Positions 495-14,365 of a stretch of 14,417 nt of DNA are shown here, piece after piece. The notes beneath the pieces are model-generated. The model saw only the letters and a program-made list of their open reading frames with translations. It did not search any database and was not told the origin of the DNA. Numbering within the stretch: position 1 is the stretch's first letter; the number at the start of each line of letters is the position of its first letter. The position numbers and the translations under genes were made by a program. The stretch lies in the NCBI GenBank assembly GCA_011364975.1, contig RDOE01000085.1, forward strand, positions 1-14,417, in the 5' to 3' direction. The DNA comes from Promethearchaeota archaeon (GTDB taxonomy: Archaea > Asgardarchaeota > Lokiarchaeia > Sigyniarchaeales > SOKP01).

Positions 495-653
495 GCAATA
501 CCCATAAATTTATTTGAAATGACATGATAATCATTTAAATGATCTCAATAAAGGTATAAAATTTTAATTATTGCGAAATCATGAATTAGAAGAAATATTG
601 TTTTTAAGCGCTCATCCTCTAAACTTCATAATTAGGTTTAAAACAAAAAATAG

Positions 654-724
654 AAATCCAAATAGCACCTGAGCAAGTGAATGCCCAGGTGCGGGATTTT
701 GGATTTGGAAAAAAGACTTGTTGT
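654..724 (-). promoter_or_regulatory. Conserved hairpin/palindromic element, copy 1 (3' of the small-ORF unit; terminator-like RNA structure or operator)
   Basis: GCACCTGAGCA(665-675)-AGTGAA-TGCCCAGGTGC(682-692). The single mismatch is a G-U pair on the - strand. Outer stem AAATCCAAA(654-662)/TTTGGATTT(698-706), followed on the - strand by a U-rich tract. A second copy lies at 9012-9066. Confidence 0.65.
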
Positions 725-765
725 CTTTAACATGATTTGTTGGTAAATTAATGATTGTAATCTCC

Positions 766-834
766 TTAAAAGTTAAAGTAAGAAGTATTAAATCCCTCAT
801 AGGTTATTATATACTTTTTCACACTTTTTTTCAT
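766..834 (-). CDS. 22-aa small ORF MKKSVKKYIITYEGFNTSYFNF
   Basis: ATG at 834 preceded by AAGGTGAAAATT (AGGTGA Shine-Dalgarno). Starts 17 nt after the stop of the upstream 852..1112 gene. TAA at 766-768. Confidence 0.5.
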   Translation of the reverse strand: MKKSVKKYIITYEGFNTSYFNF

Positions 835-851
835 AATTTTCACCTTTTATT

Positions 852-1112
852 CTAAATCATAAATTTTCTAATTGATAATGCTTGCCTATCAAGGTTAGCT
901 TTATAATTATTCATTTCTGAAATTTCTTCTAAATATGTTGCATTCATTTTTGCTCTATTATATAACCCTATTGAGCCCCTTCCTTCTACTTTCTCCCCTT
1001 TTACAATAACCTTTTCCGCTTTTTTAAAATCATCCAGGATTATACCTTCCAAATCAATGTTTATATCCGCACATGCCTTACAAAATGGTTGTTTTTCTAT
1101 TATTTGAGACAT
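852..1112 (-). CDS. Small hypothetical protein (86 aa from ATG 1112; 90 aa from GTG 1124) with N-terminal CxxC; divergent from the wHTH-TPR regulator
   Basis: Protein-like composition with a CKAC motif. The C-terminal 20 aa resemble the 17-aa ORF at 9093-9146. Confidence 0.75.
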   Translation of the reverse strand: MSQIIEKQPFCKACADINIDLEGIILDDFKKAEKVIVKGEKVEGRGSIGLYNRAKMNATYLEEISEMNNYKANLDRQALSIRKFMI

Positions 1113-1182
1113 TTTTTTTTTCACTTCACTTTTTATTTTCTAAGAATAATATATCTTAAACTTTATTTTTAGTTTCATTATA

Positions 1183-1262
1183 AAAACTTCAAATAAAGTT
1201 ATGAACAAGTTTTGAATAAGAAACCTTATATTGAAGTTTTGACATAGTTATATTATAAATAC
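1183..1262. promoter_or_regulatory. Divergent promoter region with inverted/direct repeats and a BRE/TATA-like box
   Basis: Inverted repeat AAAACTTCAA(1183-1192)/TTGAAGTTTT(1231-1240). AAGTTWTGA at 1196, 1207 and 1234. AAACCTTATATT at 1221-1232. TTGACATA at 1239-1246 also occurs upstream of the paralog (9187-9194). Confidence 0.45.
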
Positions 1263-1286
1263 CAATAATTTTCCTAAAGGATAGAT

Positions 1287-2498
1287 ATGGAAGTAACTTC
1301 AATAAAAGTACCCCCAGAGAATATCTTAAATACTGAAATAAAAAACTTTGAACATATAATTCTTTGGATGTTAAAAAATAATGACGGGTGCCAATGGTCG
1401 GATTTTGTGAGTGATCCTGTTAACATAAGCGGGTCCACATTATCCGGTTATTTAAATAGCTTAATGGAGCTTCATTATATTGAAAAACTTTCCCTTATGA
1501 TCAACAATAGAAAACGAAAGATTTACAGAATTTTACCTGAAGGGGAAAGAAGATTTATTGAATTATCAACTTTTCAAAGTGAGGAAGTAAAACTAAATTA
1601 TCCTCCACAAATAATTCTTAATAGAAGAAATTATGATCATTGGATTTTATGGATGGTTTATAACAACACCACATGTAAATGGGCTGATTTCTTAGATGAT
1701 CCATTAAATATAAATCAATCCTCTTTATCCAAAAATCTTAACAAATTGATGAGTTTGAATCAGGTAATTAAAAATGAAAGAGAGAAGGATTATTCAATAA
1801 CTCAGACTGGAAAGATAGAATATTCAAGAATGTTAAGAAAATATGATTTAGATAGACAATCCATTTTAGAGGAAGAAAGTAAGAGGATAGAAGAGATTGT
1901 AGGTAAAATTAAAGATTTTTTTGCTGGCAAACAAATACAAGATGATATAAAATTTAGATTTCTTAGTAATGTATTGAAACTTGACTATTCCAAAGTTAAA
2001 GATATCCTTCCCAATGAGACTGATTTTTTTAAAATTATATTATATCTTTCTATTAATCATCCTATTGAATATCCCAATTACACTCCCTTAAAAAAGCTAG
2101 CAAGAGATTATCAAATAGAAGAACGAATTTTGAATTATTATATTCCTGAGATTGTAGAAAATGACCTTTACCCAATTAAATTCTTTAAATTAAATGTTGA
2201 AGGCTCAAAAGACTATTATTTTCGTTCAGATGATGAATTTGAAAAAAGTTTAAGGACTTTAGTCGATGGTTGTATCACTAAACTTACATATTTAAATAAA
2301 TTGTATAAAGCTACATCTAAAGAAATTCCTGAAAGCAGGTTTTTTGATAAAATTATTGAAAATATCATAAATAGAGCCTCAGGAAAGTTAATTCCTGAAG
2401 AATTAAAGGAGTCCATGAAAAAATTCCTCCCTAAATATATCCATCATTTATTATATAAATTTGATACTGGAAATAAAGAAATCTGTGGACAAATTTGA
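1287..2498 (+). CDS. N-terminal fragment: two tandem MarR-like winged-helix repeats plus helical domain (403 aa)
   Basis: Repeats PP..ILN..N[FY][ED]H.ILWM..NN..C.W.DF...P.NI..S.LS..LN.L......K.....Y.I...G at ~1311 and ~1602. Confidence 0.7.
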   Translation: MEVTSIKVPPENILNTEIKNFEHIILWMLKNNDGCQWSDFVSDPVNISGSTLSGYLNSLMELHYIEKLSLMINNRKRKIYRILPEGERRFIELSTFQSEEVKLNYPPQIILNRRNYDHWILWMVYNNTTCKWADFLDDPLNINQSSLSKNLNKLMSLNQVIKNEREKDYSITQTGKIEYSRMLRKYDLDRQSILEEESKRIEEIVGKIKDFFAGKQIQDDIKFRFLSNVLKLDYSKVKDILPNETDFFKIILYLSINHPIEYPNYTPLKKLARDYQIEERILNYYIPEIVENDLYPIKFFKLNVEGSKDYYFRSDDEFEKSLRTLVDGCITKLTYLNKLYKATSKEIPESRFFDKIIENIINRASGKLIPEELKESMKKFLPKYIHHLLYKFDTGNKEICGQI

Positions 2499-3405
2499 TG
2501 CATTAGCGTATGATACCATGTCTCATATATTTCAAGCGTTAAAACCAGTAAGTGCCTTTGAGCAAACTGGAGAGGAAGGTGATAATTATTTTGTAGATTC
2601 GATGATTTTTAAATTTTTAAAACCAATAAAGAATTGTAAATTGGATTTAATAAAACAAAAATTATTTGAAAGCAAACCTAAAGGAGAATTGATGGATCTT
2701 GTAGATTCTGCATTGAAAATAAGTCCAAATGATAGAGAATTAAAGTTATTACGAGCAATCGTTTTATGTATTTTACGTAGATACAATGAAGCTATTAAGT
2801 ATTTGAATAAAGAGACTAACTTTGAAGAGATTGTAAACAATAAAGAAGATTTTATTACAACTTCATTCATAATAGCTTATGCAAATATCGGGATTGGGAG
2901 ATATTCAAGAGCAGGAGAAGTTCGAGGTGATGTATTAAAACGATTTCCAAAAGATATGATTGCTGGTTTGTTAAATGCATTCATTTATGCTTATAATATG
3001 ATTTATGTCTTCGATCCTGATACCTCGACTGAAGAGGAATTTCATTATACAATGAATAAGTTAATCGAGAGAGAGCAGGATGAAGAAAATAAAGCTGAAA
3101 TGTACATTTTTTATGGCTATATTTTACATCTAACTGAACATAATAAGGAAGCTCTCGAAAAGGTAAATAATGCCTTAGAACTTAACCCAATTAGTGATTA
3201 TTTCTTCCATAAGGTTCATTATTTATATGATCTAGGCTACATTAATGAAGCAATAGATGTTCTGGAAAAAATTGGAAAAGATTTTCCTGAAAAAGAGGAT
3301 ATGATTAAATTTAAGATTGCATCACTTTATTATAAGTTAAATAAAACTTTAGAATCAAAAGTCTCAATCTTAAGGATGAAACTATTAAGAACGCAGAATA
3401 TTTAA
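2461..3405 (+). CDS. Middle fragment: TPR-repeat region (314 aa)
   Basis: TPR-like helices, e.g. YGYILHLTEHNKEALEKVNNALELNP and KVHYLYDLGYINEAIDVLEKIGKDFP. Confidence 0.6.
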   Translation: MILEIKKSVDKFDALAYDTMSHIFQALKPVSAFEQTGEEGDNYFVDSMIFKFLKPIKNCKLDLIKQKLFESKPKGELMDLVDSALKISPNDRELKLLRAIVLCILRRYNEAIKYLNKETNFEEIVNNKEDFITTSFIIAYANIGIGRYSRAGEVRGDVLKRFPKDMIAGLLNAFIYAYNMIYVFDPDTSTEEEFHYTMNKLIEREQDEENKAEMYIFYGYILHLTEHNKEALEKVNNALELNPISDYFFHKVHYLYDLGYINEAIDVLEKIGKDFPEKEDMIKFKIASLYYKLNKTLESKVSILRMKLLRTQNI

Positions 3406-3458
3406 TAGAAAATGGTCCCGATAATGGAAATTATTTTGATTCTTACGGAGAGGTATTA

Positions 3459-3713
3459 ATGATGTTTGGTAATTATGAGGATGCTATCACTAAGTTTAAA
3501 AAAGCTTTAGAACTCGAACCAGATGGATGGTTTGTTTATGAAACATATATTAAAATGGGAAGATGCCAGATGAAATTAGGTTTTCCTAAAGAAGCTATTA
3601 ATAATTTCAAGAAGGGAAAATCATATATCCAGAGAAATCTTCCATGCTGTAAAAAGCATTTCACATGGGTTGAGAAAGCAGATAGATATCTTGAAAAACT
3701 AAATGCTATTTAA
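3459..3713 (+). CDS. C-terminal fragment: last two TPR repeats (frame open from 3345)
   Basis: GEVLMMFGNYEDAITKFKKALELEP..YIKMGRCQMKLGFPKEAINNFKKG matches the paralog's C-terminus. Confidence 0.55.
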   Translation: MMFGNYEDAITKFKKALELEPDGWFVYETYIKMGRCQMKLGFPKEAINNFKKGKSYIQRNLPCCKKHFTWVEKADRYLEKLNAI

Positions 3714-3769
3714 GCATATATTACAAAAAACAATATTTTATTATACACTTTTTAATTGAATAGGATAAT

Positions 3770-4603
3770 ATGTCGGCAATAAAGTTTGATTTAGAGATAA
3801 TAACTTCCCATACTGTAGCAAATACTACAGGATTGGGACGAGGGAATGTGGGAGCAATAAGTTTAAGAAATTATGTCATTGCTATTGATTCCACTATCTA
3901 TGCTAAGACAGCTCAAATTTTCCGAACAAATCTCGAAGAACACTTTAACCTACCAGTAAAATTCATAATTCTTACGCATTACCATGCAGATCATATATTT
4001 GGAATTGGTCCATTTAAGGATATAGTTAGTTTTTGCAGTGAGCAAATGCTTGAAAATATGCAATCTAGCTCGATTAAGCAAACTTATGAACAAAGAGTGA
4101 AGGATCTTTTAAAGGAAGATCCTTTAGCTGAGGGGATAGTGTTTGAACTTCCAAATATAGCTTTTAACAATAAGTTAATAATAAGGGATGAGGATCTTTA
4201 CATAGAAGCAATTCACTTAGGAGGACACACATCAGGTTCTAGTATTGTACATTTTCCACATGAGAAAGTATTATTTGCCGGTGATTTAATTTTTGCTAAT
4301 ATGTTTCCTTATGCGGGGGATGCTACATGCGATCCTGAGCTTTATATTAAAGCAATTGAGATTATGAAGGAAATGAAACCAGAAATCGTGATTCCCGGTC
4401 ATGGAAAGATATTGAAAGGATATAAGACTCTAGATGAATATATCAACTTCTTTAAGAAAGTTCGAATGATAATTAAAGATGCTATTAATAATGAGATACC
4501 CCCTGAAAAAATCGAATTACCAACCCAATATGAAATTTTCAATGAAGAATTAAAAAGGTTGACAGTTAATCATTGGTACAATTTCTATAAAAAAGGTTTA
4601 TAA
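3770..4603 (+). CDS. Metallo-beta-lactamase-fold hydrolase (cyclase/glyoxalase II-like)
   Basis: THYHADH (HxHxDH), GGHTSG, LFAGDL and IPGHG motifs. Confidence 0.92.
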   Translation: MSAIKFDLEIITSHTVANTTGLGRGNVGAISLRNYVIAIDSTIYAKTAQIFRTNLEEHFNLPVKFIILTHYHADHIFGIGPFKDIVSFCSEQMLENMQSSSIKQTYEQRVKDLLKEDPLAEGIVFELPNIAFNNKLIIRDEDLYIEAIHLGGHTSGSSIVHFPHEKVLFAGDLIFANMFPYAGDATCDPELYIKAIEIMKEMKPEIVIPGHGKILKGYKTLDEYINFFKKVRMIIKDAINNEIPPEKIELPTQYEIFNEELKRLTVNHWYNFYKKGL

Positions 4604-4619
4604 AAAATATTTAAGGCGT

Positions 4620-5585
4620 TTACGAACTATTACTATTTTTGTTTTGATTATATTCTTTGACGAGTTCTATGATCTGAGCCTTCCGATACGACGAAGGAAC
4701 CTTTATTTCATTTTTTTTACAGTATTCTTTTAATTGTTTTACTGTCCATTGGTTAAAATCTATTTCTTCTTTAGACCCTTCTTTAACCATGCTTACAGGT
4801 TCCAAAATTTCAATTCCTTCAAATTTACCAGAATCATTATTAAAATATAACCTTAAGCTAAGATTATCAATTTGAATAACTTCTTTAGGTGCGGAATAAA
4901 CAGCTTCCCATTCGACTTCTTCAACTTGTTTGCCGAAGATATTAATTTTTTTTGTTACCGGATTAAAGATTTTAAAATTCCCAAGAATTAGATTTTGTCT
5001 TTTAAATTGTTCAGGAACTTTAGTAGAAATAATTTTTTTAACAATTTCGCTATAATTATCTATGGAATTAACCTTCATATCCGAGGAGATACTATTTTCT
5101 AGTTGTTCTTCCTTTAAATATTCTCTCTCCGCTCTAATTTCCTTTAGCTGGGGGGGCGGACCATTCCATTTATGAATTACCTTATGATCATCCCTAGGAG
5201 GGCTCTGTATTGAAGTAAATACATCCTCTGCCTCATTAATCTTGAAGGATTTAAAACCAAATGCGTTAAGGAAATCATCAGTTTCATCACCTTGATCTAC
5301 TGATACAATTTTACAATGATGAAAATGGGCAGTATTTAATAATTCATTTTGCAGATCTGATGCTACTCGTGAAGCAATAAACTTTTTTCGTACAGAAGAT
5401 AACGCTCCATTCCATATATAAATTCTCCTAAGATCTTCTTTAACTATTACATAAACTTGCGATGAATTTAAGATATTTTCGCCATTATTCAATCGAAATT
5501 GATCTTCAGTTACATCTAGTTTGATTCGCTCCCCCGTATCCTCTAAAATAAAAACCATAAAATGGTCATATGCTACTGCCATCAT
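4620..5585 (-). CDS. Asgard-type single-gelsolin-domain protein with a central extra domain (1DGelX-like) and a C-terminal Rho_N/HeH(SAP)-like motif
   Basis: LNSSQVYVIV..LRRIYIWNGALSSVRKKFIASRVA....KIVSVDQGDETDDFLNAFG fits the gelsolin repeat signature. The C-terminal DFNQWTVKQLKEYCKKNEIKVPSSYRKAQIIELV fits a helix-extension-helix pattern. Confidence 0.8.
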   Translation of the reverse strand: MMAVAYDHFMVFILEDTGERIKLDVTEDQFRLNNGENILNSSQVYVIVKEDLRRIYIWNGALSSVRKKFIASRVASDLQNELLNTAHFHHCKIVSVDQGDETDDFLNAFGFKSFKINEAEDVFTSIQSPPRDDHKVIHKWNGPPPQLKEIRAEREYLKEEQLENSISSDMKVNSIDNYSEIVKKIISTKVPEQFKRQNLILGNFKIFNPVTKKINIFGKQVEEVEWEAVYSAPKEVIQIDNLSLRLYFNNDSGKFEGIEILEPVSMVKEGSKEEIDFNQWTVKQLKEYCKKNEIKVPSSYRKAQIIELVKEYNQNKNSNSS

Positions 5586-5867
5586 TAAGTATCTATCTTA
5601 TCTTTTAATTTAAAAATAAGATAACGGTAATGAATTATGATTTAATTAACCTAATAATCAATTATAAGCATATAAAATTATTCAAAGATGTCTCTTTTAA
5701 TGTAAAAGGAGTTTGTTATATCCAATACATTTTATCTTCTTATAATTTTGTTAATATTTTGTATTAATCCTTAATAAAAGTATTATTTAATAGTAATCTT
5801 CAATTCTAATTTTTTAAATTAGGAAATTTTATCATCTCTAAATATGCAATAGATCCCAAAATATAAC

Positions 5868-7103
5868 GTGAAGTTAATGTCAGAAGTAACTCAGAGGAAA
5901 TTTTTCAAGTATCGAATGCTAGCACCTTTATGGATTGCTGTTTTTATAGATATATTAGGATTCTCTTTGCTTTTTCCTATGGCTGGTTTTTTTAGAGAAG
6001 TATTTAATACAAGCAATTTTGTAATTGGCTTAGTCTTCTCCGTTAATGCTATGTTTGGTTTTGTTTTTGGACCGTTTTTAGGAAAATTAAGTGATAAGTA
6101 TGGGAGAAAACCCTTACTTTTAATATCTCAATTTGGAACCTTATTGGCATTTATATTAACTGCTTTTTCTGACTCATTAATGATGCTTTTTATAGCAAGA
6201 ATGATTGATGGGGTCTTTGGAGGAAATTTCCCCATTGCAAAAGCAATTGTAAGCGATATAGTCCCTCCAAAAGATCGTGGAATTCAAATGGCAAATATAG
6301 GAGTTTCCCATGTGTTGGCAAATCTAATAGGACCTGGGATTGGAGGTATCTTGTTTACATGGTTTGGTATTATCGGCCCGGGATTATTTGCAGCGGCCTT
6401 AACTGTTATTACAATAACTCTTACGTTAACTATGCTACAGGAATCATGGCCAAAAGAAGAAAGATTGCATCATCAAGAATTTGAGATTGAAATCGACGTA
6501 AAGATAAGTAAAAACAAGAATGCTATTTTCTTTTTAATATTATTCGGATTTCATTCAGTCTCATTTATGATAATTATGTCTTCTATCTCATTTTTCGGGG
6601 CTAGTGTTCTTGGGCTACGCCCACTTGAAATATCTCTCCTTTTAACAACTTCAGGAGTATTTCGTGCGATAATTAGATTTACCCTATTCAAGCCCACGAT
6701 TAAAAAGTTTGGAGAAGATAACGCAATCAGATTAGGATTAACTATATTTCTTATCTCATTTTTCCTTGTAAGTTTTGCCACAAACCTACCTCTTCTATTT
6801 ATATTATTTATGACAATCAGTTTTGCAGCCTCATTAACAAGAGGTCCTATGAATAGTAAAATTAGCCAAACAGTTTCGCCTAAAGTTCAAGGAAAAATTA
6901 ATGGTTTATCATCCTCTCTGGACGCGATGGCGCAAATTTTAGGCCCATTAATTGGACCCTTAATTATTGATACTCTTCCTGCATTTTGGTTAGGGATCAT
7001 TATAGGGTTAATTGCATTACCTCCATTTATAATGGCTTTCCAGAATATTGCTGCAAAGAAATACATTCCAAATGAGTTTAAGTTAAACCATAATCAAAAA
7101 TAA
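5868..7103 (+). CDS. MFS transporter, DHA1/TetA-like (possible ATG start at 5877)
   Basis: Motif A GKLSDKYGRKP, FIDILGF in TM1, ARMIDGVFGG, motif C GPGIGG; about 12 hydrophobic segments. Confidence 0.92.
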   Translation: MKLMSEVTQRKFFKYRMLAPLWIAVFIDILGFSLLFPMAGFFREVFNTSNFVIGLVFSVNAMFGFVFGPFLGKLSDKYGRKPLLLISQFGTLLAFILTAFSDSLMMLFIARMIDGVFGGNFPIAKAIVSDIVPPKDRGIQMANIGVSHVLANLIGPGIGGILFTWFGIIGPGLFAAALTVITITLTLTMLQESWPKEERLHHQEFEIEIDVKISKNKNAIFFLILFGFHSVSFMIIMSSISFFGASVLGLRPLEISLLLTTSGVFRAIIRFTLFKPTIKKFGEDNAIRLGLTIFLISFFLVSFATNLPLLFILFMTISFAASLTRGPMNSKISQTVSPKVQGKINGLSSSLDAMAQILGPLIGPLIIDTLPAFWLGIIIGLIALPPFIMAFQNIAAKKYIPNEFKLNHNQK

Positions 7104-7136
7104 AAAAAAATAGAGTTTTAAATTATATTTTATTAT

Positions 7137-8897
7137 CTATTCAAAATCGGTTGACCAGTAGCAAGGATAGAAGTAAGCTTTCTGCATTCGATTTGTTGGA
7201 AATCCCATCAAATTTGTTCGCCAAGCATCATTATTGATAGGACAATATACATATGCCCATGGCATATCTTCTTCAACCAATAATTCTTGAATTCTGTTAT
7301 ATTGTTGTTCTCTCGTTACTTCATCTGTATTTAATAATGCAGCTTCCATTAGAAGTTGTACATTATCATTCAAACCAAAAGGATCTCTTAAAGCTTCTTT
7401 TGCAGAGAGATAACCGTTATATTGAACGCCATTAGACGCAACTGATCTATTTGTAAACAAGGGATTTATATAATTGCTAGGATCATTATAATCAGGTATC
7501 CAACCTAAGAAATATAATTGATTTAAATTTCGATATAATCCTGCTAACTCATATAAACTCAAAATAAATTGAGACCAGGTTGTACCAGCATCTTCTACTT
7601 TGATTCCTATTAATCCAAGGTTATTTATGAGAACAGCATACATATTTTCTCTCATATCATTTCCAATATTATATGTATAATTTACGGTTAAATAACTCGC
7701 TGCAGTCCATTCTGCTTCATTAGTTCCGGGATAATTAGTATCTAATCCGAGTCCATAACCCATACTTTGCATATACCCTCTAGCAGCAGCTATATCTGTA
7801 GTTGCTACGTTAAATGACCAATTTGCAAATGTTATTCCTTCTGGAATGGGAGATCTCAATCGAACAGCCTGTCCTTGTAATAACTCATCAATAATGAAAG
7901 TATAGTTTATTGCATGAGATATCGCTTTTCTTACGGTTGAATTTATCCAAAAATTATTCATACCTAAATATTGAATTCCTAATGTCTGATCTGCTACTTC
8001 TAAATGGACATCCGGATCTGCTTCAAATGTTGTGAGCATAGACGCCATAGGATCTATTACAAGATCTATGTCTCCTGACAATAATGCATTATTTCTGATC
8101 TGGGGATCATTTATTATTGAAAAAATTAAGGTATCACATTTTGCAGGAGCTCTCCAATAATAATCCCAAGAATGAAATCTTACTTCAACACCAGCTTCAT
8201 ATCCATCATAGACAAAAGGCCCAGTGCCAACTAAGTCACCAGTAGCAGTATCAATGACTTCATTGAATGGAGTTGAGGTTGGGGAGAGCATATAAGCAGC
8301 ATTAAATGTTAAAAGTGCTTCAAAAGCACCATATGGGACATTTAATACGAATCTTAGAATGTAATCGTCTAAAACTAAGGTTTTGTTTATAATAGGCGCA
8401 AATATAGCTGCGGTTTCACCGGTTGTTTCGTTAACTACATCAGTTCTAACATAATATTCGTAAAGTTCACCTGCTTTTGCTAAACCATGGTCCATGAAAT
8501 ATTGTAATCTATCAAAATTCCATTTCGCAACTTCAGCATCAAATTTAGTTCCATCATGAAACCAGACATCATCTCTTAATTCTACAGTGTAATTTGATCC
8601 ATCCCAAGTCCCAAAATCTGTTGCTAAAATCGGGATAATGGGTAAATTAGGATCAGTGAGATCATATTGAAATAATGCTTCAACTACTTGATCATGAACA
8701 TTAGTAGAGGCACTATCCCAAGAATCCATAGGATCTAAGTCAGCTGGTCCACTTTGGGTCCCAAAAATTATAGTTATTCCTAAATCGGGATATGTTTGGG
8801 CTGTTGGAATAAGTAATAAAATACCATTTCCTGTGATTGAAGCTACTGCGAGAACCGACAATAAAATGATTGCCCAATCTTTCTTTTCAAGGTCCAT
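7137..8897 (-). CDS. ABC transporter substrate-binding protein, family 5 (OppA/DppA-like), N-terminal membrane anchor
   Basis: LDP..SWD, VELRDDVWFHDGTKFDAEVAKWNFDR, VGTGPF, VRKAISHAIN, GWIPDYNDP and YNRIQELLVEEDMPW. No permease or ATPase genes in the window. Confidence 0.93.
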   Translation of the reverse strand: MDLEKKDWAIILLSVLAVASITGNGILLLIPTAQTYPDLGITIIFGTQSGPADLDPMDSWDSASTNVHDQVVEALFQYDLTDPNLPIIPILATDFGTWDGSNYTVELRDDVWFHDGTKFDAEVAKWNFDRLQYFMDHGLAKAGELYEYYVRTDVVNETTGETAAIFAPIINKTLVLDDYILRFVLNVPYGAFEALLTFNAAYMLSPTSTPFNEVIDTATGDLVGTGPFVYDGYEAGVEVRFHSWDYYWRAPAKCDTLIFSIINDPQIRNNALLSGDIDLVIDPMASMLTTFEADPDVHLEVADQTLGIQYLGMNNFWINSTVRKAISHAINYTFIIDELLQGQAVRLRSPIPEGITFANWSFNVATTDIAAARGYMQSMGYGLGLDTNYPGTNEAEWTAASYLTVNYTYNIGNDMRENMYAVLINNLGLIGIKVEDAGTTWSQFILSLYELAGLYRNLNQLYFLGWIPDYNDPSNYINPLFTNRSVASNGVQYNGYLSAKEALRDPFGLNDNVQLLMEAALLNTDEVTREQQYNRIQELLVEEDMPWAYVYCPINNDAWRTNLMGFPTNRMQKAYFYPCYWSTDFE

Positions 8898-9011
8898 ACT
8901 TAATTCACTTACTAATTTTTTTTAGATTTTTTTCTTAAATTAACGAATTTAGTTCCCAATCAGTATACTTTTTTTTCCACATCCTTTTTTAACATAATAT
9001 CGATTATATGT

Positions 9012-9066
9012 ATCCTGAGCAAATTATTGCTCAGGATTGGATTTAGAACTTAAGACTGGGTGTTGT
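9012..9066 (-). promoter_or_regulatory. Conserved hairpin/palindromic element, copy 2
   Basis: Perfect inverted repeat ATCCTGAGCAA(9012-9022)-ATTA-TTGCTCAGGAT(9027-9037), then TTGGATTTaGAActtAAGACTgggTGTTGT, matching copy 1 (699-724). Confidence 0.65.
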
Positions 9067-9092
9067 ATGTTATGAGATACAACTATATTAAT

Positions 9093-9146
9093 TTAAATCA
9101 TGTAAAAAGAAATAGATTTTTGCTCCGGACTACGTACATAGTTCAT
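9093..9146 (-). CDS. 17-aa small ORF MNYVRSPEQKSISFYMI, divergent from the intact wHTH-TPR regulator
   Basis: GGAGGT Shine-Dalgarno (9151-9156) 4 nt before ATG 9146; TAA at 9093-9095. Similar to the C-terminus of the 852..1112 protein, in the equivalent position. Confidence 0.55.
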   Translation of the reverse strand: MNYVRSPEQKSISFYMI

Positions 9147-9229
9147 ATTTACCTCCGAAGTATGGAGAATAAACAAAAGATATAAATTGACATAACTATC
9201 AATACATAATCTTTTAAGGGTAATGTGAA

Positions 9230-12196
9230 ATGATAAAGATAAGTAAGGCTGAAAACATTATATACCCCCCTCAAGAAGTATTAAATCCTAGGATGGGTAA
9301 AGATTATGATTATATTATTCTTTGGATGCTTTCTAATAATGATTTTTGTTCTTGGTCCGATTTAGCGGAAATTATTAGTACTTCAACACTTTCGGAACAT
9401 CTAAATAAATTACGTAACAAAGGTCTTATCCGTCATCCTAAATATAATTATTACGAAATAACCTTAGAAGGGAAAAATAAGTTTAGAAAGGTAACAAATA
9501 AAGGAATTAAAACACAAAAAAAAATTTTAATACCCCCAAAAGCAATTTTACGAAAAAGAAATTATGATCACTGGATACTTTGGATGTTGTACAATAACCA
9601 GAGCTGTCGTTGGTCCGATTTTAGAAAAGAACCTTTAGCTGTGAATCAATCTTCACTTTCTAAGAACTTGAGCTATCTTATCGAAAAACAATTAATAAAG
9701 AATGAAAATCGAAGATATAAAATCACTCAAAAAGGAAAAATCGAATATTTAAGTATCCTTAAATTCTATGAATTAGATAGACAATCAATCTTAGATGCTG
9801 AAGGAGAAAGAATAGATGCAATAACTGCTGATCTCTTTAAATTTTTTGACAAATTCACCATAAATGAAGATGATATAAGATTTAGATTTTTAAAATATGT
9901 TCTTAGAATGGATTATTCTAAAGTAGAGAACATTCTAAAAAATAAGGAAGATTATTATAAAATTCTATTATATTTAGCAATAAATCATCCAAATAATTAT
10001 CCTAAATTTATTTCATGTGAGGAATTTTCATATAAATATAAAATAAAAAATAATACTCTCAATTATTTTCTTGATAAAATTATAGAGGACAATCTTTTTC
10101 TTATTAAGTTCTTCAAGATAATCGATAACGCTTGTAGGATTTATTATTTTCAAGTAGGAGACAAAATCGAGAAGGATCTATGTAATATTGTCGAAGAAAA
10201 TATTATGAAATTCACATACTTAAAGAAATTAAAGATGATCAATAAAAATAGAGATCTTGGTTTAGATATCGACAAATTGGTAGACAATATTCTGACTGAT
10301 ATCTCTACAAAAACATTAGTCAAAGAATTGAAAGAATCATTAAGAAATTTACTCCCAGAATATATTAAATATTTAGCCTATAAGATTGGGGCTAAAAAAA
10401 ACCTATATAATAAAGTTGATAAATTAGAAAGTATCGCCATTCAAAAATTTTTTGATGTATTTCAATCAAATACCTCCCCTTTATTACAACGATTTACTAG
10501 TTCAAGGAACTCTTTATTTAGGGTCGATTTAACCATCCTTAAGAATTTAGACATTTTGTATATATCAAAAATCGACCTTATAAAAATTCCATTTTTTAAA
10601 AAATCTTTTTTCCCCGAAGATATTAAGTTACTGAATCATTTACTACATCTACTTATAAGAAGTAAGAAATTTAGTGCAGAACAATTATTGGAAAAGAATA
10701 GGTCAAAAATAAATAAATTACAGTATCTCATTCTAAAAGATCTCATAGTCACGTTTTTTAATGACTATAAAACCTCATTAAGTATCACTAACCAAATAAT
10801 AAGTCTTGATAAACGATCTCCTATTGGTTATCTATTAAAAGCATTAACTTATTTTAAAATGGGACGCTATTCTATAGCATTAAATAAAATTAAATACACA
10901 CTTGAAAGTTGGGATAAGGTATTTATTTCATTATTAAAAGCACAAATTCTTATCAAGATGGATAATCCAGAGAAAGCAATCCCTATAATAGGTTCATTAG
11001 AACTTAATAATCCCAACAACCTATATCTTTTACGCATAAAAATTCTTTTTCATATCTATTATCTTAAAAATGAACAGCCGATTTCAATTCAAGCATTAAC
11101 CCTTATAAATCAAGCATTAAAGGTCAGACCAAATAGTAAAATATTTCTAATTACAAAAGCAATGATATTATGTTTTCTAAAAAAACCAAAGGATGCTAAG
11201 AACCTGTTAATACGAAGTAATAGCCTTAATTTCTTTAAACCAAACGTATTATATGAACCAACCACATTTTTCATTATAATTATAAGTTATTTAATGCAGG
11301 GTAAGTTTAAACAATCTTTAGATTTAGTAAAAAAAGTTAACATTCATTACCCGGATAATATATATTCTGTATTAGCAGAAACAATTACTTTATTATATTC
11401 TTTTATGTTCAATCTTAAAAGAGATTCTCAAATGTCTCAACAACTTGTAGTTCTTTTAGATAAATTATCTACTATTGATTCTAACAAATCAAATCAATCG
11501 AGATACTGCATTCTTAAAAGTTATTTATATCTAAATGACAATCAAATCATTAATTCGATTCAAATTTTAGACGAAGGTATAAATCTTGATTCTGATAATA
11601 TGGATCTTTATTATTCAAAAATCTATACGCTAATAGCTTATAATAAACTTGAAAAGGCACTAGAAATTATCGATAAGTTGATGCTAATTAAGCCTCATAG
11701 AAAAAGAGAGTTATATTATACTAAATCGTTCCTTTATTATAAAGCAGGTAAATTAATTGAGGCTTTAAAGACTGTTAATCAAGGTTTAGAGTATTTTTTA
11801 GATGATGTTGGACTAATAAATAACAAAGCACTCTATTTAAAGGATTTAAAAAGAAAAGATGAAGCGATTGAAACAGCAAAAGAATTAATAAAATTAACTC
11901 CTGAAAATGCAATTTCATTTGATACATATGGAGAGATATTAATGGCGTTTGGGTATTATAAACAAGCAATAATTCAATTCAGGAAATCTCTACGATTAGA
12001 TCCTCAACTTTTGTATTCCTTTAGTAGTAACATAAATCTTGGAAAATGTTACAAAAATTTGGGGGATTATCAAAAATCAATTCATTATTTTCAGAGAGGT
12101 AAATTGTTAACAAACAAATTATTACCAATTGATAAAGAATTGTTCCTAAAGGATATTGATATTAATATCAAAGAACTAAATAAAATGTCCCAATAA
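9230..12196 (+). CDS. Tandem winged-helix + multi-TPR putative transcription regulator (988 aa)
   Basis: Two N-terminal wHTH repeats (IILWMLSNNDFCSWSDL..STSTLSEHLNKL..Y.IT.EG; HWILWMLYNNQSCRWSDF..NQSSLSKNL..Y.IT.KG) and a TPR-rich C-terminal half (FDTYGEILMAFGYYKQAIIQFRKSLRLDP; NLGKCYKNLGDYQKSIHYFQRG). Confidence 0.88.
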   Translation: MIKISKAENIIYPPQEVLNPRMGKDYDYIILWMLSNNDFCSWSDLAEIISTSTLSEHLNKLRNKGLIRHPKYNYYEITLEGKNKFRKVTNKGIKTQKKILIPPKAILRKRNYDHWILWMLYNNQSCRWSDFRKEPLAVNQSSLSKNLSYLIEKQLIKNENRRYKITQKGKIEYLSILKFYELDRQSILDAEGERIDAITADLFKFFDKFTINEDDIRFRFLKYVLRMDYSKVENILKNKEDYYKILLYLAINHPNNYPKFISCEEFSYKYKIKNNTLNYFLDKIIEDNLFLIKFFKIIDNACRIYYFQVGDKIEKDLCNIVEENIMKFTYLKKLKMINKNRDLGLDIDKLVDNILTDISTKTLVKELKESLRNLLPEYIKYLAYKIGAKKNLYNKVDKLESIAIQKFFDVFQSNTSPLLQRFTSSRNSLFRVDLTILKNLDILYISKIDLIKIPFFKKSFFPEDIKLLNHLLHLLIRSKKFSAEQLLEKNRSKINKLQYLILKDLIVTFFNDYKTSLSITNQIISLDKRSPIGYLLKALTYFKMGRYSIALNKIKYTLESWDKVFISLLKAQILIKMDNPEKAIPIIGSLELNNPNNLYLLRIKILFHIYYLKNEQPISIQALTLINQALKVRPNSKIFLITKAMILCFLKKPKDAKNLLIRSNSLNFFKPNVLYEPTTFFIIIISYLMQGKFKQSLDLVKKVNIHYPDNIYSVLAETITLLYSFMFNLKRDSQMSQQLVVLLDKLSTIDSNKSNQSRYCILKSYLYLNDNQIINSIQILDEGINLDSDNMDLYYSKIYTLIAYNKLEKALEIIDKLMLIKPHRKRELYYTKSFLYYKAGKLIEALKTVNQGLEYFLDDVGLINNKALYLKDLKRKDEAIETAKELIKLTPENAISFDTYGEILMAFGYYKQAIIQFRKSLRLDPQLLYSFSSNINLGKCYKNLGDYQKSIHYFQRGKLLTNKLLPIDKELFLKDIDINIKELNKMSQ

Positions 12197-13105: not shown

Positions 13106-14365
13106 TTAAAATACAAATTCTCCCTTTCGCATTATTGGTTCGATGGAATTATCATTCAAAATGCCATCAACATTCATTTCACCAGAACCAATCATAAAAT
13201 CTATGTGGATAAGGCTTGAATTTCCTCCAGCCTGTTGAAATTCTTTTTCAGACATCTTTTCTCCACCTTTTATGCTAGTTTTATATCCTCTCCCAAGAGC
13301 AATATGAATTGAGGCATTTTCATCTATGAGTGTATTATAAAAGAGCAGTCCTGATTTGGAAATAGGTGAACTATGGGGAACAAGAGCTATCTCGCCCAAA
13401 TATTGGGCACCTTCATCAATTTTTAAAGTATCTTGTAAAACCTTATTACCTTTTTTTGCAGTTGCTTCAATAATCCTCCCCTTAGAAAATTCTAAGGTCA
13501 TCCCTTCAATTAAAATACCCCCATAAAAAAGCGGTTTAGTAGAAGAAACAACACCTTCAGTTTTTTCTCTATGCGGTATTGTAAAAATTTCCTCAGTTGG
13601 AATATTCGGAATGAACTTAATCCCATTAAGCGTCACTTCAGTTCCTCCCTGCCAAACATGATTTTTTGGTAAGTCAATCACTAAATCTGTTCCTGGAGCA
13701 ACTAACTTTAGGCCGGAATATGATTTTTTATTAAGATAGTCACATCGGTTACGTAATAGACCAAGATGAGAATTCCATGCAACTATTGGATCATTTGTAG
13801 TTATACGGCAGATATCAAATATTCTTTTCCAAAGTTCCATTATTCTTTCTTCTGGAGGAAGATTTGGGAACAACTTATTAGCCCAACTTTTTACTGATGC
13901 TGAAATAACTGTCCAATTCATTGCATTCTTTGCAATGAGATCAGAAACGGGTTTATTGTATTTATAATAAGCTTTTTGAAATTCTGAAATAAGTTTTGGG
14001 TCTTCTTCCTTCAATAAGTCAGGATTTGTACCTAAAATGAAAAGATTTGCATTACCATCCTTACATATCTCATACTCAGCATCTAGCTTCCATTTTGGAT
14101 ACTCATTGAAAGAGTCTTTGGGAGCATTCTGAAACCTTATTAAGCGTAATTCTTCATCCCCCCACATAACATCGACTAGTTTACAGCCTAACTGATATGC
14201 CTTTTTTACTATTAAATGAATTAATCGAGCACATTCTAATGGAACACCATCATTGTAAGATGTAGGCGCCCCTATTAACAATTTTTGGCCCGATTGTAAA
14301 TTAAGCCCTACTTTTACAATTACTTCAGCATATTTTTCTAAATTCTTTTCAAATTCATAATTCAT
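13106..14365 (-). CDS. ampS: Aminopeptidase, peptidase family M29 (AmpS/PepS/aminopeptidase T-like)
   Basis: LEKYAEVIVKVGLNLQ.GQ, PNIPTEEIFT, LGEIALV, FYNTLIDENASIHIALG and NSSLIHIDFMIG. Confidence 0.93.
   Translation of the reverse strand: MNYEFEKNLEKYAEVIVKVGLNLQSGQKLLIGAPTSYNDGVPLECARLIHLIVKKAYQLGCKLVDVMWGDEELRLIRFQNAPKDSFNEYPKWKLDAEYEICKDGNANLFILGTNPDLLKEEDPKLISEFQKAYYKYNKPVSDLIAKNAMNWTVISASVKSWANKLFPNLPPEERIMELWKRIFDICRITTNDPIVAWNSHLGLLRNRCDYLNKKSYSGLKLVAPGTDLVIDLPKNHVWQGGTEVTLNGIKFIPNIPTEEIFTIPHREKTEGVVSSTKPLFYGGILIEGMTLEFSKGRIIEATAKKGNKVLQDTLKIDEGAQYLGEIALVPHSSPISKSGLLFYNTLIDENASIHIALGRGYKTSIKGGEKMSEKEFQQAGGNSSLIHIDFMIGSGEMNVDGILNDNSIEPIMRKGEFVF

Follow-up and report, generated by a model that had tools for sequence, protein, structure and literature searches.

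Do the two paralogous regulator genes on contig RDOE01000085.1 of a Promethearchaeota archaeon belong to a peptide-sensing system, in which a transcription factor reads a peptide encoded beside its own gene? The contig (C189) was analysed over its entire 14,417 nt and is the window referred to below; it is one of 200 contigs in a 3.74 Mb genome of 30.6% G+C content. The best explanation that we can offer for the locus, and one that we hold at somewhat less than even probability, is that it carries two diverged copies of a regulatory cassette that is specific to its lineage and comes from an Asgard (Lokiarchaeia-type) genus, working by the mechanism proposed below. That the cassette is a functional unit is, in our view, very likely. 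Three components make up its full form: a transcription factor that joins tandem winged helices to a long tetratricopeptide repeat (TPR) solenoid; a divergent operon for a basic protein of 67–95 amino acids and one to three micro-peptides of 21–29 amino acids, mostly with aromatic ends; and a GC-rich hairpin predicted to lie in the transcript of the divergent operon. Copy a (612–3713) is complete, with a regulator, divergent promoters, a small open reading frame (ORF), one micro-ORF and the hairpin, while copy b (9013–12196) is reduced to a regulator, a promoter and the hairpin. The features are as follows.

1287–3713, plus strand: regulator copy a (ORF list; its pieces align in order to the intact paralogue; Pfam HTH_34, HTH_45 and TPR)
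1185–1246, no strand assigned: divergent promoter region of cassette a (AACTTC, inverted GAAGTT, TATA-like cTTATAT and TTGACATA)
852–1112, minus strand: small ORF of cassette a, 86 amino acids, beginning MSQ and ending RKFMI (family alignments A1 and A4; profile match with E = 3e-27)
766–834, minus strand: micro-ORF of 22 amino acids, MKKSVKKYIITYEGFNTSYFNF (translation; profile match with E = 1.4e-4 when not a seed)
693–728, minus strand: conserved 5' flank of hairpin a (the plus strand reads GGGATTTTGGATTTGGAA and then a small AAGAC/GTCTT stem)
665–692, minus strand: hairpin a, with an 11 bp stem and a 6 nt loop (all 11 positions pair on the minus strand, one as G-U)
9230–12196, plus strand: regulator copy b, intact, 988 amino acids (ORF list, Pfam and AlphaFold2 model)
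9157–9194, no strand assigned: promoter region of regulator b (GAAGT at 9157–9161 and TTGACATA at 9187–9194)
9034–9062, minus strand: flank of hairpin b (the plus strand reads GGATTGGATTTAGAA..AAGACTGG)
9013–9036, minus strand: hairpin b, with a perfect stem (194 nt upstream of regulator b and 117 nt upstream of the start of the divergent solute-binding protein gene)

The AlphaFold2 model of regulator b (mean predicted local distance difference test score of 82.7) has, in order, two winged helices of the ArsR/MarR-like kind, both recognized by Pfam (HTH_34 and HTH_45), a long helix, a third winged-helix-like unit, a helical linker and a TPR solenoid at residues ∼434–988; the Pfam TPR families matched in the regulators include TPR_1, TPR_2, TPR_8 and others. 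According to Foldseek, the top matches of this model are APC/C TPR subunits, OGT and Tom70, and no RRNPP receptor is present among the PDB matches listed, which run to rank 47. A sequence search of the PDB with the N-terminal domain of the regulator gave nothing with an E value under 0.1. The two genes are paralogous, as the preliminary description of this DNA had claimed, with the Pfam domains noted above and 45% identity across 386 amino acids of the N-terminal part (E = 4e-100); 1287–3713 is, however, not a single ORF in the window. It consists of three colinear pieces, 1287–2498 (frame 0), 2461–3405 (frame 1) and 3459–3713 (frame 0). Contigs from four public runs were compared with the window over 500–4000, and five extra nucleotides (AAACT) follow position 2469 in contigs X3 and X13, while 76 extra nucleotides lie between 3361 and 3362 in contigs X1 and X13. 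Since 5 and 76 add up to 81 and frame 0 is open from 3363, a single protein of ∼835 amino acids is encoded in those populations. Because other assemblies restore one frame, the breaks in copy a would be assembly errors or a strain variant and not the marks of an old pseudogene. The contig thus lacks 5 nt at 2469/2470 and 76 nt at 3361/3362 that are present in assemblies of the same population, and similar collapses may exist elsewhere on it.

The N-terminal domain occurs six times in the genome, twice in the window and once each on contigs C88, C46, C37 and C173; the last three of these paralogues have none of the cassette features that were counted. It is found in 33 of 36 genomes of the same genus, with 1–8 matches per genome, and in the one genome of a second genus (g3), and in none of the 23 other genomes of the order and class. 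In a wide database search the regulator matched 739 clusters at E ≤ 1e-10, whose only names are 'TPR repeat protein', 'tetratricopeptide repeat protein' or 'hypothetical'; the database relatives of the proteins studied here are labelled as Asgard metagenome-assembled genomes (Promethearchaeota, Lokiarchaeota, Hodarchaeota and others). We gathered 100 non-redundant regulator loci from the same-genus genomes, and the counts out of 100 given below are based on these. The open frames of the regulators fall into size classes of ∼640, 830–880 and 980–1030 amino acids. Paralogues of the short class (∼640 amino acids) are paired with a divergent P-loop ORF of ∼183 amino acids resembling small GTPases and not with the small-ORF operon; this pairing is seen in 24 of the 100 loci, including that on C46 of this genome (G000:C46) and, for example, L013 and L018–L026, and in 21 of the 53 short-class loci (≤700 amino acids) with at least 1 kb of upstream sequence.

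The divergent small ORF belongs to a family of its own. Within 1.5 kb upstream of 30 related regulators, 17 loci have mutually alignable divergent ORFs of 67–95 amino acids that start with M-[AVST]-Q and begin 147–252 nt from the regulator ATG. The family profile matches 35 ORFs (16 of them training rows) in 33 of the 100 loci; all are on the divergent strand and most start at the same distance from the ATG. A search with the 86-amino-acid sequence by itself found relatives in just two of 61 genomes, which is misleadingly low compared with the profile and direct inspection. The family has no match in Pfam or NCBIfam and no usable match in the ESM Atlas; in the databases it forms 49 clusters, none with a Pfam domain and most without a name, the names seen being 'hypothetical protein' and one JGI ATPase label. 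The parts are inherited together, with their strand and position kept, and this supports the regulator and the divergent small ORF as a real inherited cassette. The longest hydrophobic run in 36 small proteins is 2–4 residues, with no signal sequence. Their C-termini are specific to subgroups (RKFMI/RKFMV, RFYMG, YRNYRTNF, AIF and FGFR), and 21 of the 36 end in F or Y.

Many loci have one to three tandem micro-ORFs of 21–29 codons downstream of the small ORF, on its strand. Motif-free clustering of 1,317 tiny ORFs upstream of the regulators gave three clusters (14, 12 and seven members) confined to the divergent strand, the remaining large clusters being shadow frames of the GTPase gene. A profile built from those three divergent-strand clusters matches 37 ORFs in 21 of the 100 loci, all on the divergent strand, and none of the 707 tiny ORFs on the regulator's strand. 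The micro-ORFs are preceded by GAGGT or GGTG where the long ORFs of the genome show Shine–Dalgarno enrichment, and a strict Shine–Dalgarno 4-mer is found before 31 of the 37, compared with 102 of 1,280 other tiny ORFs. In cassette a the ATG of the micro-ORF lies 17 nt past the stop of the small ORF, with GGTG 9–12 nt upstream of it, and this micro-ORF is the sole significant match among the 20,944 tiny ORFs of the genome (the profile then included it). In the consensus a charged N-terminal part leads into a short strand of Ile and Val, which is followed by an N-[AP]-G-Y or N-P-x-Y turn and then by an aromatic C-terminus; 30 of the 37 end in F, Y or W, and the longest hydrophobic run per peptide is 2–5 residues. 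Micro-ORFs are found beside none of 53 regulators of up to 700 amino acids, exactly one is found in eight of 18 loci with regulators of 800–900 amino acids, and one to three are found in 13 of 21 with regulators of at least 970. This rise with regulator length is only suggestive because it follows the clades of the regulator tree, onto which the cassette features map, and is thus confounded by relatedness. Two loci, L005 (G026:C50) and L006 (G019:C310), have a Cys-rich ORF of 27 amino acids (W-[VL]-C-R-[HN]-F-C-S-A-S-C-R-A-E-[IL]-C) between the small ORF and the micro-ORFs. At the start of another contig of this genome (G000:C94, 33–250) an ORF of 25 amino acids ending NTTYFRF matches the micro-ORF profile with E = 0.12; a 9 bp inverted repeat, CCTGCCACC..GGTGGCAGG, whose loop is ∼50 nt long, comes after it. 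The assembly may here have truncated a further cassette, leaving its tail.

Copy b lacks this operon. The preliminary description had placed a divergent ORF ending in [FY]MI before each regulator, and had taken these C-termini to be ligands of the neighbouring TPR region in a four-part cassette repeated twice. Both ORFs exist with such ends, but their standing differs, and we list here the second of them together with an overlapping frame in cassette a.

9093–9146, minus strand: ORF of 17 amino acids ending YMI, unsupported as a gene (no profile score; start and stop lost in L009)
612–800, minus strand: ORF of 62 amino acids overlapping the micro-ORF and hairpin a, probably spurious (no Pfam match)

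The ORF at 852–1112 belongs to the family described above; an 84%-identical orthologue also ends in RKFMI and the C88 paralogue in KFMV. The ORF at 9093–9146 is not a homologue: every bit score against the small-ORF and micro-ORF profiles is below 3, and in L009, the sister of copy b in the tree and its only homologous locus, the DNA is 61% identical with no frame-specific conservation, the ATG being ATC and the TAA being TTA. It is not counted here as a gene. A search of 8898–9229 for a remnant small ORF or peptide found none, and L009 is reduced like copy b as far as its contig reaches. With no small-ORF operon in copy b and C-termini that vary by subgroup, neither the twofold repetition of four parts nor [FY]MI as a conserved ligand motif held up, and the model in this exact form is very improbable. 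Looking on the opposite strand upstream of homologous regulators, as had been proposed, did recover the small ORF in 33 and the hairpin in 13 of the 100 loci, whereas the [FY]MI ending is not general. The likeness of the frame at 612–800 to other sequences is confined to the stretch encoded by the hairpin.

Between the divergent genes of cassette a, AACTTC (1185–1190) and GAAGTT (1233–1238) face each other and TTGACATA (1239–1246) follows directly. TTGACATA had been noted as a shared element and is indeed present 48 nt (copy a) and 43 nt (copy b) before the ATG, but its count alone is not significant (0.94 occurrences expected, with at least two in 50 of 200 shuffles). It is found at −44 and −43 in two related loci and as an exact match at −43 to −48 in four of 33; it belongs to a common promoter layout and does not stand as a separate element. 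The intergenic regions between regulators and small ORFs also share a ccTTAAAT-like box and GAAGTTCGAAC-type repeats. By an unbiased count, the most enriched 7-mers of the proximal 220 nt are GAACTTC, ACTTCGA and GTTCGAA, found in 40 of 92 loci against 3.7 expected, and 7-mers of the GAACTTC type number 2.0 per 250 nt in cassettes with a small ORF or peptides and 0.16 in the GTPase-linked loci. We put at about even the chance that these GAAGTTC/TTCGAA repeats, which are likelier candidates than the palindrome, are the operator.

The palindrome, CCTGAGCA-N6-TGCYCAGG at 668–689 and 9014–9035, was confirmed, with no matches expected from shuffles. It is longer than had been described, with 11 bp stems at 665–692 and 9013–9036 and a conserved flank, and it has a third copy on contig C11 of the genome; a variant lies inside the C88 small ORF, and four of the six regulator paralogues of the genome have no hairpin. 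The flank of hairpin a is common to the C11 copy and partly to those of copy b, C88 and L009. In L009 the layout is that of copy b, with the hairpin at −200 and TTGACATA at −44. The C11 copy (G000:C11, 51000–51110) is an orphan, nearly identical in hairpin and flank to copy a and with no regulator nearby; it lies between two membrane-protein genes, beside a frame resembling a micro-peptide that has a Shine–Dalgarno site and no ATG, and is probably a decayed cassette. A pattern search found the palindrome in ten of 41 other genomes of the genus, once in each and always beside a regulator of the long class, while the reversed pattern gave no matches there. A covariance model finds the hairpin in 15 of 42 genomes of the genus, that is in 14 of the 41 others, once per genome, with a regulator beside it at 11 of those 14 sites. 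This distribution supports the hairpin as a specific companion of the regulator family. A C88-type hairpin (CACTTGAGGT..ACCTCAAGT) is also found in the frame TLEVEKPQVL at G033:C119, 8650–8683 (L119), with no regulator within the 5 kb locus. The position of the element varies. In clade I the 11 bp stem is inside the small ORF, where it encodes APEV..PQV with codons identical across genomes; in copy a, G026 and L050 it lies 66–82 nt past the last micro-ORF; and in copy b and L009 it is intergenic, ∼195–200 nt from the regulator. In L025, L053 and L061 a different hairpin (AAGGGAGGGGUG...UUUUCCUUU, −12 to −16 kcal/mol) lies 70–80 nt after the micro-ORF, in the position of the CCUGGGCA hairpin of copy a.

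Does the hairpin act as RNA or as DNA? The stem covaries: in 15 aligned copies 97% of the cells pair, five pairs are changed on both sides, none of 500 shuffles reaches the observed pairing values and no slid register comes close. Of the 165 cells, 160 pair when the small-ORF strand is read, G-U pairs accounting for 14, and 147 pair when the opposite strand is read, with a single G-U. Fourteen of the 15 copies fold more stably on the small-ORF strand; for hairpin a the z-scores are −6.66 on the minus strand and −4.57 on the plus strand. A site newly found by the covariance model, G064:C130, sits in a complete cassette with two micro-ORFs and changes GAGG/CCTC to GAAG/CTTC, so that the pair is kept and a proline of the small protein becomes leucine. 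Because of the compensatory changes and the strand asymmetry in G-U pairs, the hairpin probably acts as RNA on the small-ORF strand, in the transcript of the operon. The contrary reading, in which a dimer of the winged-helix regulator binds the palindrome as its DNA operator, draws on the conservation of the arms (CACCTGAG and CTCAGGTG hardly vary), on the single copy per genome that is nearly always beside a regulator, and on the fact that symmetric changes of both arms are also expected of regulator and operator pairs that diverge together. Two points likewise weigh against RNA: four of the 11 stem pairs never vary, which would equally fit a sequence-specific DNA site, and the G-U asymmetry amounts to about five events among related sequences and could reflect strand-biased mutation. 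Nor is a single role obvious for the hairpin, which one clade has within the small ORF and other clades have downstream of the peptides. We nevertheless consider the DNA operator unlikely, as the G-U cells would be mismatches to perfect symmetry in duplex DNA, the element lies ∼100 nt inside the small ORF or 600–900 nt from the regulator ATG and not at the promoters, and it occurs in few of the loci while GAAGTTC repeats are common in promoters. The strong conservation of the arm sequence also allows for a sequence-specific protein partner of the RNA. The tandem winged helices of SelB bind the SECIS hairpin within a coding region, and the cassette likewise has tandem winged helices and, in clade I, a conserved mRNA hairpin within an ORF; this likeness is a lead only, as there is no EF-Tu-like domain and no UGA here, and a hairpin in just 13 of 100 loci cannot be the general target of the regulator family. 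An intrinsic terminator was rejected, as there is no consistent U-run: T6/T4 within 30 nt after the stem is seen only in copy a, the hairpins of copy b, C11 and G026 lack such runs, and in clade I the stem is inside the small ORF. A coding relic ('FQIQNPAPG') was dropped as well, as the C11 copy has no start codon in frame and the covariation at G064 overrides the amino acid. An Rfam scan of the window at E ≤ 1 gave two chance-level matches elsewhere and none at the hairpins.

From this arrangement we infer DNA binding, a regulatory logic and a ligand. The regulator would bind the GAAGTTC/TTCGAA repeats between the two promoters and so control both the micro-protein operon and its own gene, the hairpin would act on the mRNA (on its stability, processing or translation) and the TPR solenoid would sense a ligand, for which the best candidates are the products of the cassette itself; if these are the ligand, the result would be a feedback loop like that of Rgg/SHP. 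Canonical TPR receptors bind C-terminal tails (APC3 with IR tails, Tom70 or Hop with EEVD, PEX5 with PTS1). The nearest folds of the regulator are APC/C subunits, OGT and Tom70 and the candidate ligands are mostly aromatic-ended, although those receptors are eukaryotic scaffold or import receptors and have no DNA-binding domain. Among the products, those of the tandem micro-ORFs are better peptide candidates than the [FY]MI ORFs proposed before. That the TPR region binds the peptides or the small protein of its own cassette is nonetheless doubtful. Several results weigh against the explanation as a whole. About two thirds of the paralogues have no operon, and regulator b has neither small ORF nor micro-ORF, so the regulator does not need the operon. 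The micro-peptides are hydrophilic (grand average of hydropathy, GRAVY, from −1.1 to 0.12, mean −0.61) and have no signal sequence. Purifying selection is weak on both the micro-ORFs (pooled ratio of nonsynonymous to synonymous polymorphism, pN/pS, of 0.63) and the small ORF (0.41–0.74); a pN/pS only mildly below 1 was not used as proof of coding. No transporter or modifying enzyme is conserved beside the cassette in the loci examined, and no gene, enzyme or transporter, is shared after the peptide arrays in nine loci with ∼2.6–3 kb of upstream sequence. The public sequencing data listed comprise 20 DNA sets from seven studies and no RNA set. A complex prediction for the L025 regulator (846 amino acids; A3) with its own 86-amino-acid small protein (A4) scored 0.00, which is evidence neither way.

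Some of the same results suit an explanation in which the small protein and the micro-peptides are controlled by the regulator and do not bind it, serving for example as stress, competition or structural micro-proteins, while the TPR region senses another protein or a metabolite. Most paralogues, the intact copy b included, work without the operon, the peptides carry no export signal, and the pairing of short-class paralogues with a divergent small GTPase in 24 of 100 loci suggests a general pattern of a regulator plus a divergent target gene. The tracking of TPR length by micro-ORF number, the aromatic tendency of the C-termini in small proteins and peptides alike, given nearest TPR folds in APC/C subunits and Tom70, and the retention of the pairing across paralogues of just 45–50% identity speak for a closer relation, and we regard a pure output role as possible, on the doubtful side. 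It is quite improbable that the micro-ORFs are instead cis-acting leader or spacer ORFs whose translation serves to tune the operon, the hairpin forming part of a switch akin to an attenuator. The runs of Ile/Val codons in many members (IIII, IIVI), the weak purifying selection and a hairpin of at most −15 kcal/mol that lies 66–108 nt after the last micro-ORF (four of 21 loci against none of 60 control segments) would suit such ORFs. Yet clades that differ in the flanking residues retain the N-[AP]-G-Y/N-P-x-Y core and the aromatic C-terminus, there is no gene consistently after the array to be attenuated, and the clade I loci have no hairpin after the peptides. The boldest form of the peptide-sensing mechanism would be an Asgard family of cytoplasmic peptide sensors, independent of the Firmicute RRNPP systems, in which long TPR regulators read the divergently encoded, aromatic-ended micro-peptides and possibly the small protein's tail as well, with peptide genes matched in number to the TPR modules and the operon gated by the RNA hairpin; this we consider speculative and rather improbable.

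The RRNPP regulators (Rap, NprR, PlcR, PrgX, AimR and Alo), to which the cassette had been likened, also combine a helix–turn–helix (HTH) domain and TPRs in one protein with an adjacent small ORF. They use an XRE-type HTH, whereas the DNA-binding part here comprises two Pfam winged helices and the third winged-helix-like unit of the model, and they belong to Firmicutes or their phages, whereas the host here is an Asgard archaeon. In RRNPP systems the small ORF codes for a secreted pro-peptide, which is processed to a mature form of 5–10 amino acids and taken up again through an oligopeptide permease. The small ORFs here have no N-terminal hydrophobic signal sequence, no relationship in fold or sequence was seen among the listed Foldseek matches or in the PDB sequence search, and no RRNPP family is among the Pfam and NCBIfam matches. 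A C-terminal TPR domain is present (Pfam, and an α-solenoid at 434–988 in the AlphaFold2 model); in the excerpted text of PMC7425212 the C-terminal TPR or TPR-like domain of RRNPP proteins forms the peptide pocket, and orphan receptors without a peptide occur, of which regulator b would be the counterpart. Because of the missing signal sequence, the apparently different DNA-binding domains, the lack of a link in fold or sequence and the different taxon, we would not count the cassette as a member of RRNPP; by analogy, its logic is closest to Rgg/SHP. The available part of PMC3679016 describes divergent transcription of shp and rgg for groups I and II of the streptococcal systems and gives six rgg/shp copies for Streptococcus thermophilus LMD-9. 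As far as that account goes, the two systems share a cytoplasmic regulator whose DNA-binding domain is N-terminal and whose repeat domain is C-terminal, a divergent tiny ORF, and several paralogous pairs per genome, to be compared with the 1–8 regulator matches found here. All 37 micro-ORFs are divergent tiny ORFs next to a regulator, in most loci with the ORF of 67–95 amino acids between them and the regulator; they do not encode the short hydrophobic peptide of Rgg/SHP systems, as their mean GRAVY value indicates. Further differences are the archaeal host, tandem winged helices in place of a single HTH, a canonical TPR solenoid of ∼550 residues as the repeat part, the extra protein first in the operon, up to three tandem peptide genes and the RNA hairpin. 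The leaderless communication peptides that act with RopB in Firmicutes carry a signal between cells without a classical leader, as summarized in the portion of PMC10518010 consulted; a leader is missing from both systems, while the host and the type of regulator differ. As such peptides are known from that source, peptides without a leader may act either inside or outside the cell.

The observations of the preliminary description were thus partly confirmed, and its interpretation is partly supported. A literature search combining archaea, Asgard or Lokiarchaeia with RRNPP, TPR, winged helix, small ORFs or signalling peptides returned nothing, and we found no published description of the cassette and no archaeal peptide-sensing transcription factor system. 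Defined here are the regulator family of 739 unnamed clusters, the small-protein family of 49 clusters and a micro-peptide family missed by gene callers, together with a hairpin with covariation and a candidate operator word. Should the peptides be outputs only, they are still a clean case of conserved micro-ORFs with Shine–Dalgarno sites in Asgard genomes, and the G064 site is a case of RNA structure maintained at the expense of an amino-acid change. If the peptide-sensor reading were true, the closest prokaryotic relatives of eukaryotes would possess a multi-channel system for peptide signalling or self-recognition that arose separately from the RRNPP systems of Firmicutes and employs eukaryote-like TPR solenoids. 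The cassette is amenable to bench work without cultivation of the host.

Among the other genes of the window are those for a gelsolin-like/SAP-domain protein, an MFS transporter, a family-5 solute-binding protein, an alpha/beta hydrolase and an M29 peptidase. One of them borders copy b.

7137–8897, minus strand: family-5 solute-binding protein of the peptide/nickel type (Pfam SBP_bac_5, E = 5.6e-59)

This protein also matches NikA, DppA and Opp in NCBIfam, each under its cut-off. Its gene is the divergent neighbour of regulator b and occupies the usual position of the small-ORF operon, and regulator b is flanked on the other side by an M29 aminopeptidase (13106–14365). It is tempting to connect these two genes with a peptide system; the neighbourhood is not kept in the relatives examined. 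A tRNA scan of the window found none. A long A-rich low-complexity tract (395–500) separates cassette a from an ORF of 82 amino acids at 137–385. The gene at 4620–5585 on the minus strand encodes 321 amino acids, with weak gelsolin-repeat and DUF7904 matches at the N-terminus and an Ish1/HeH/SAP-like motif at the C-terminus, a combination that looks eukaryote-like and is consistent with an Asgard host.

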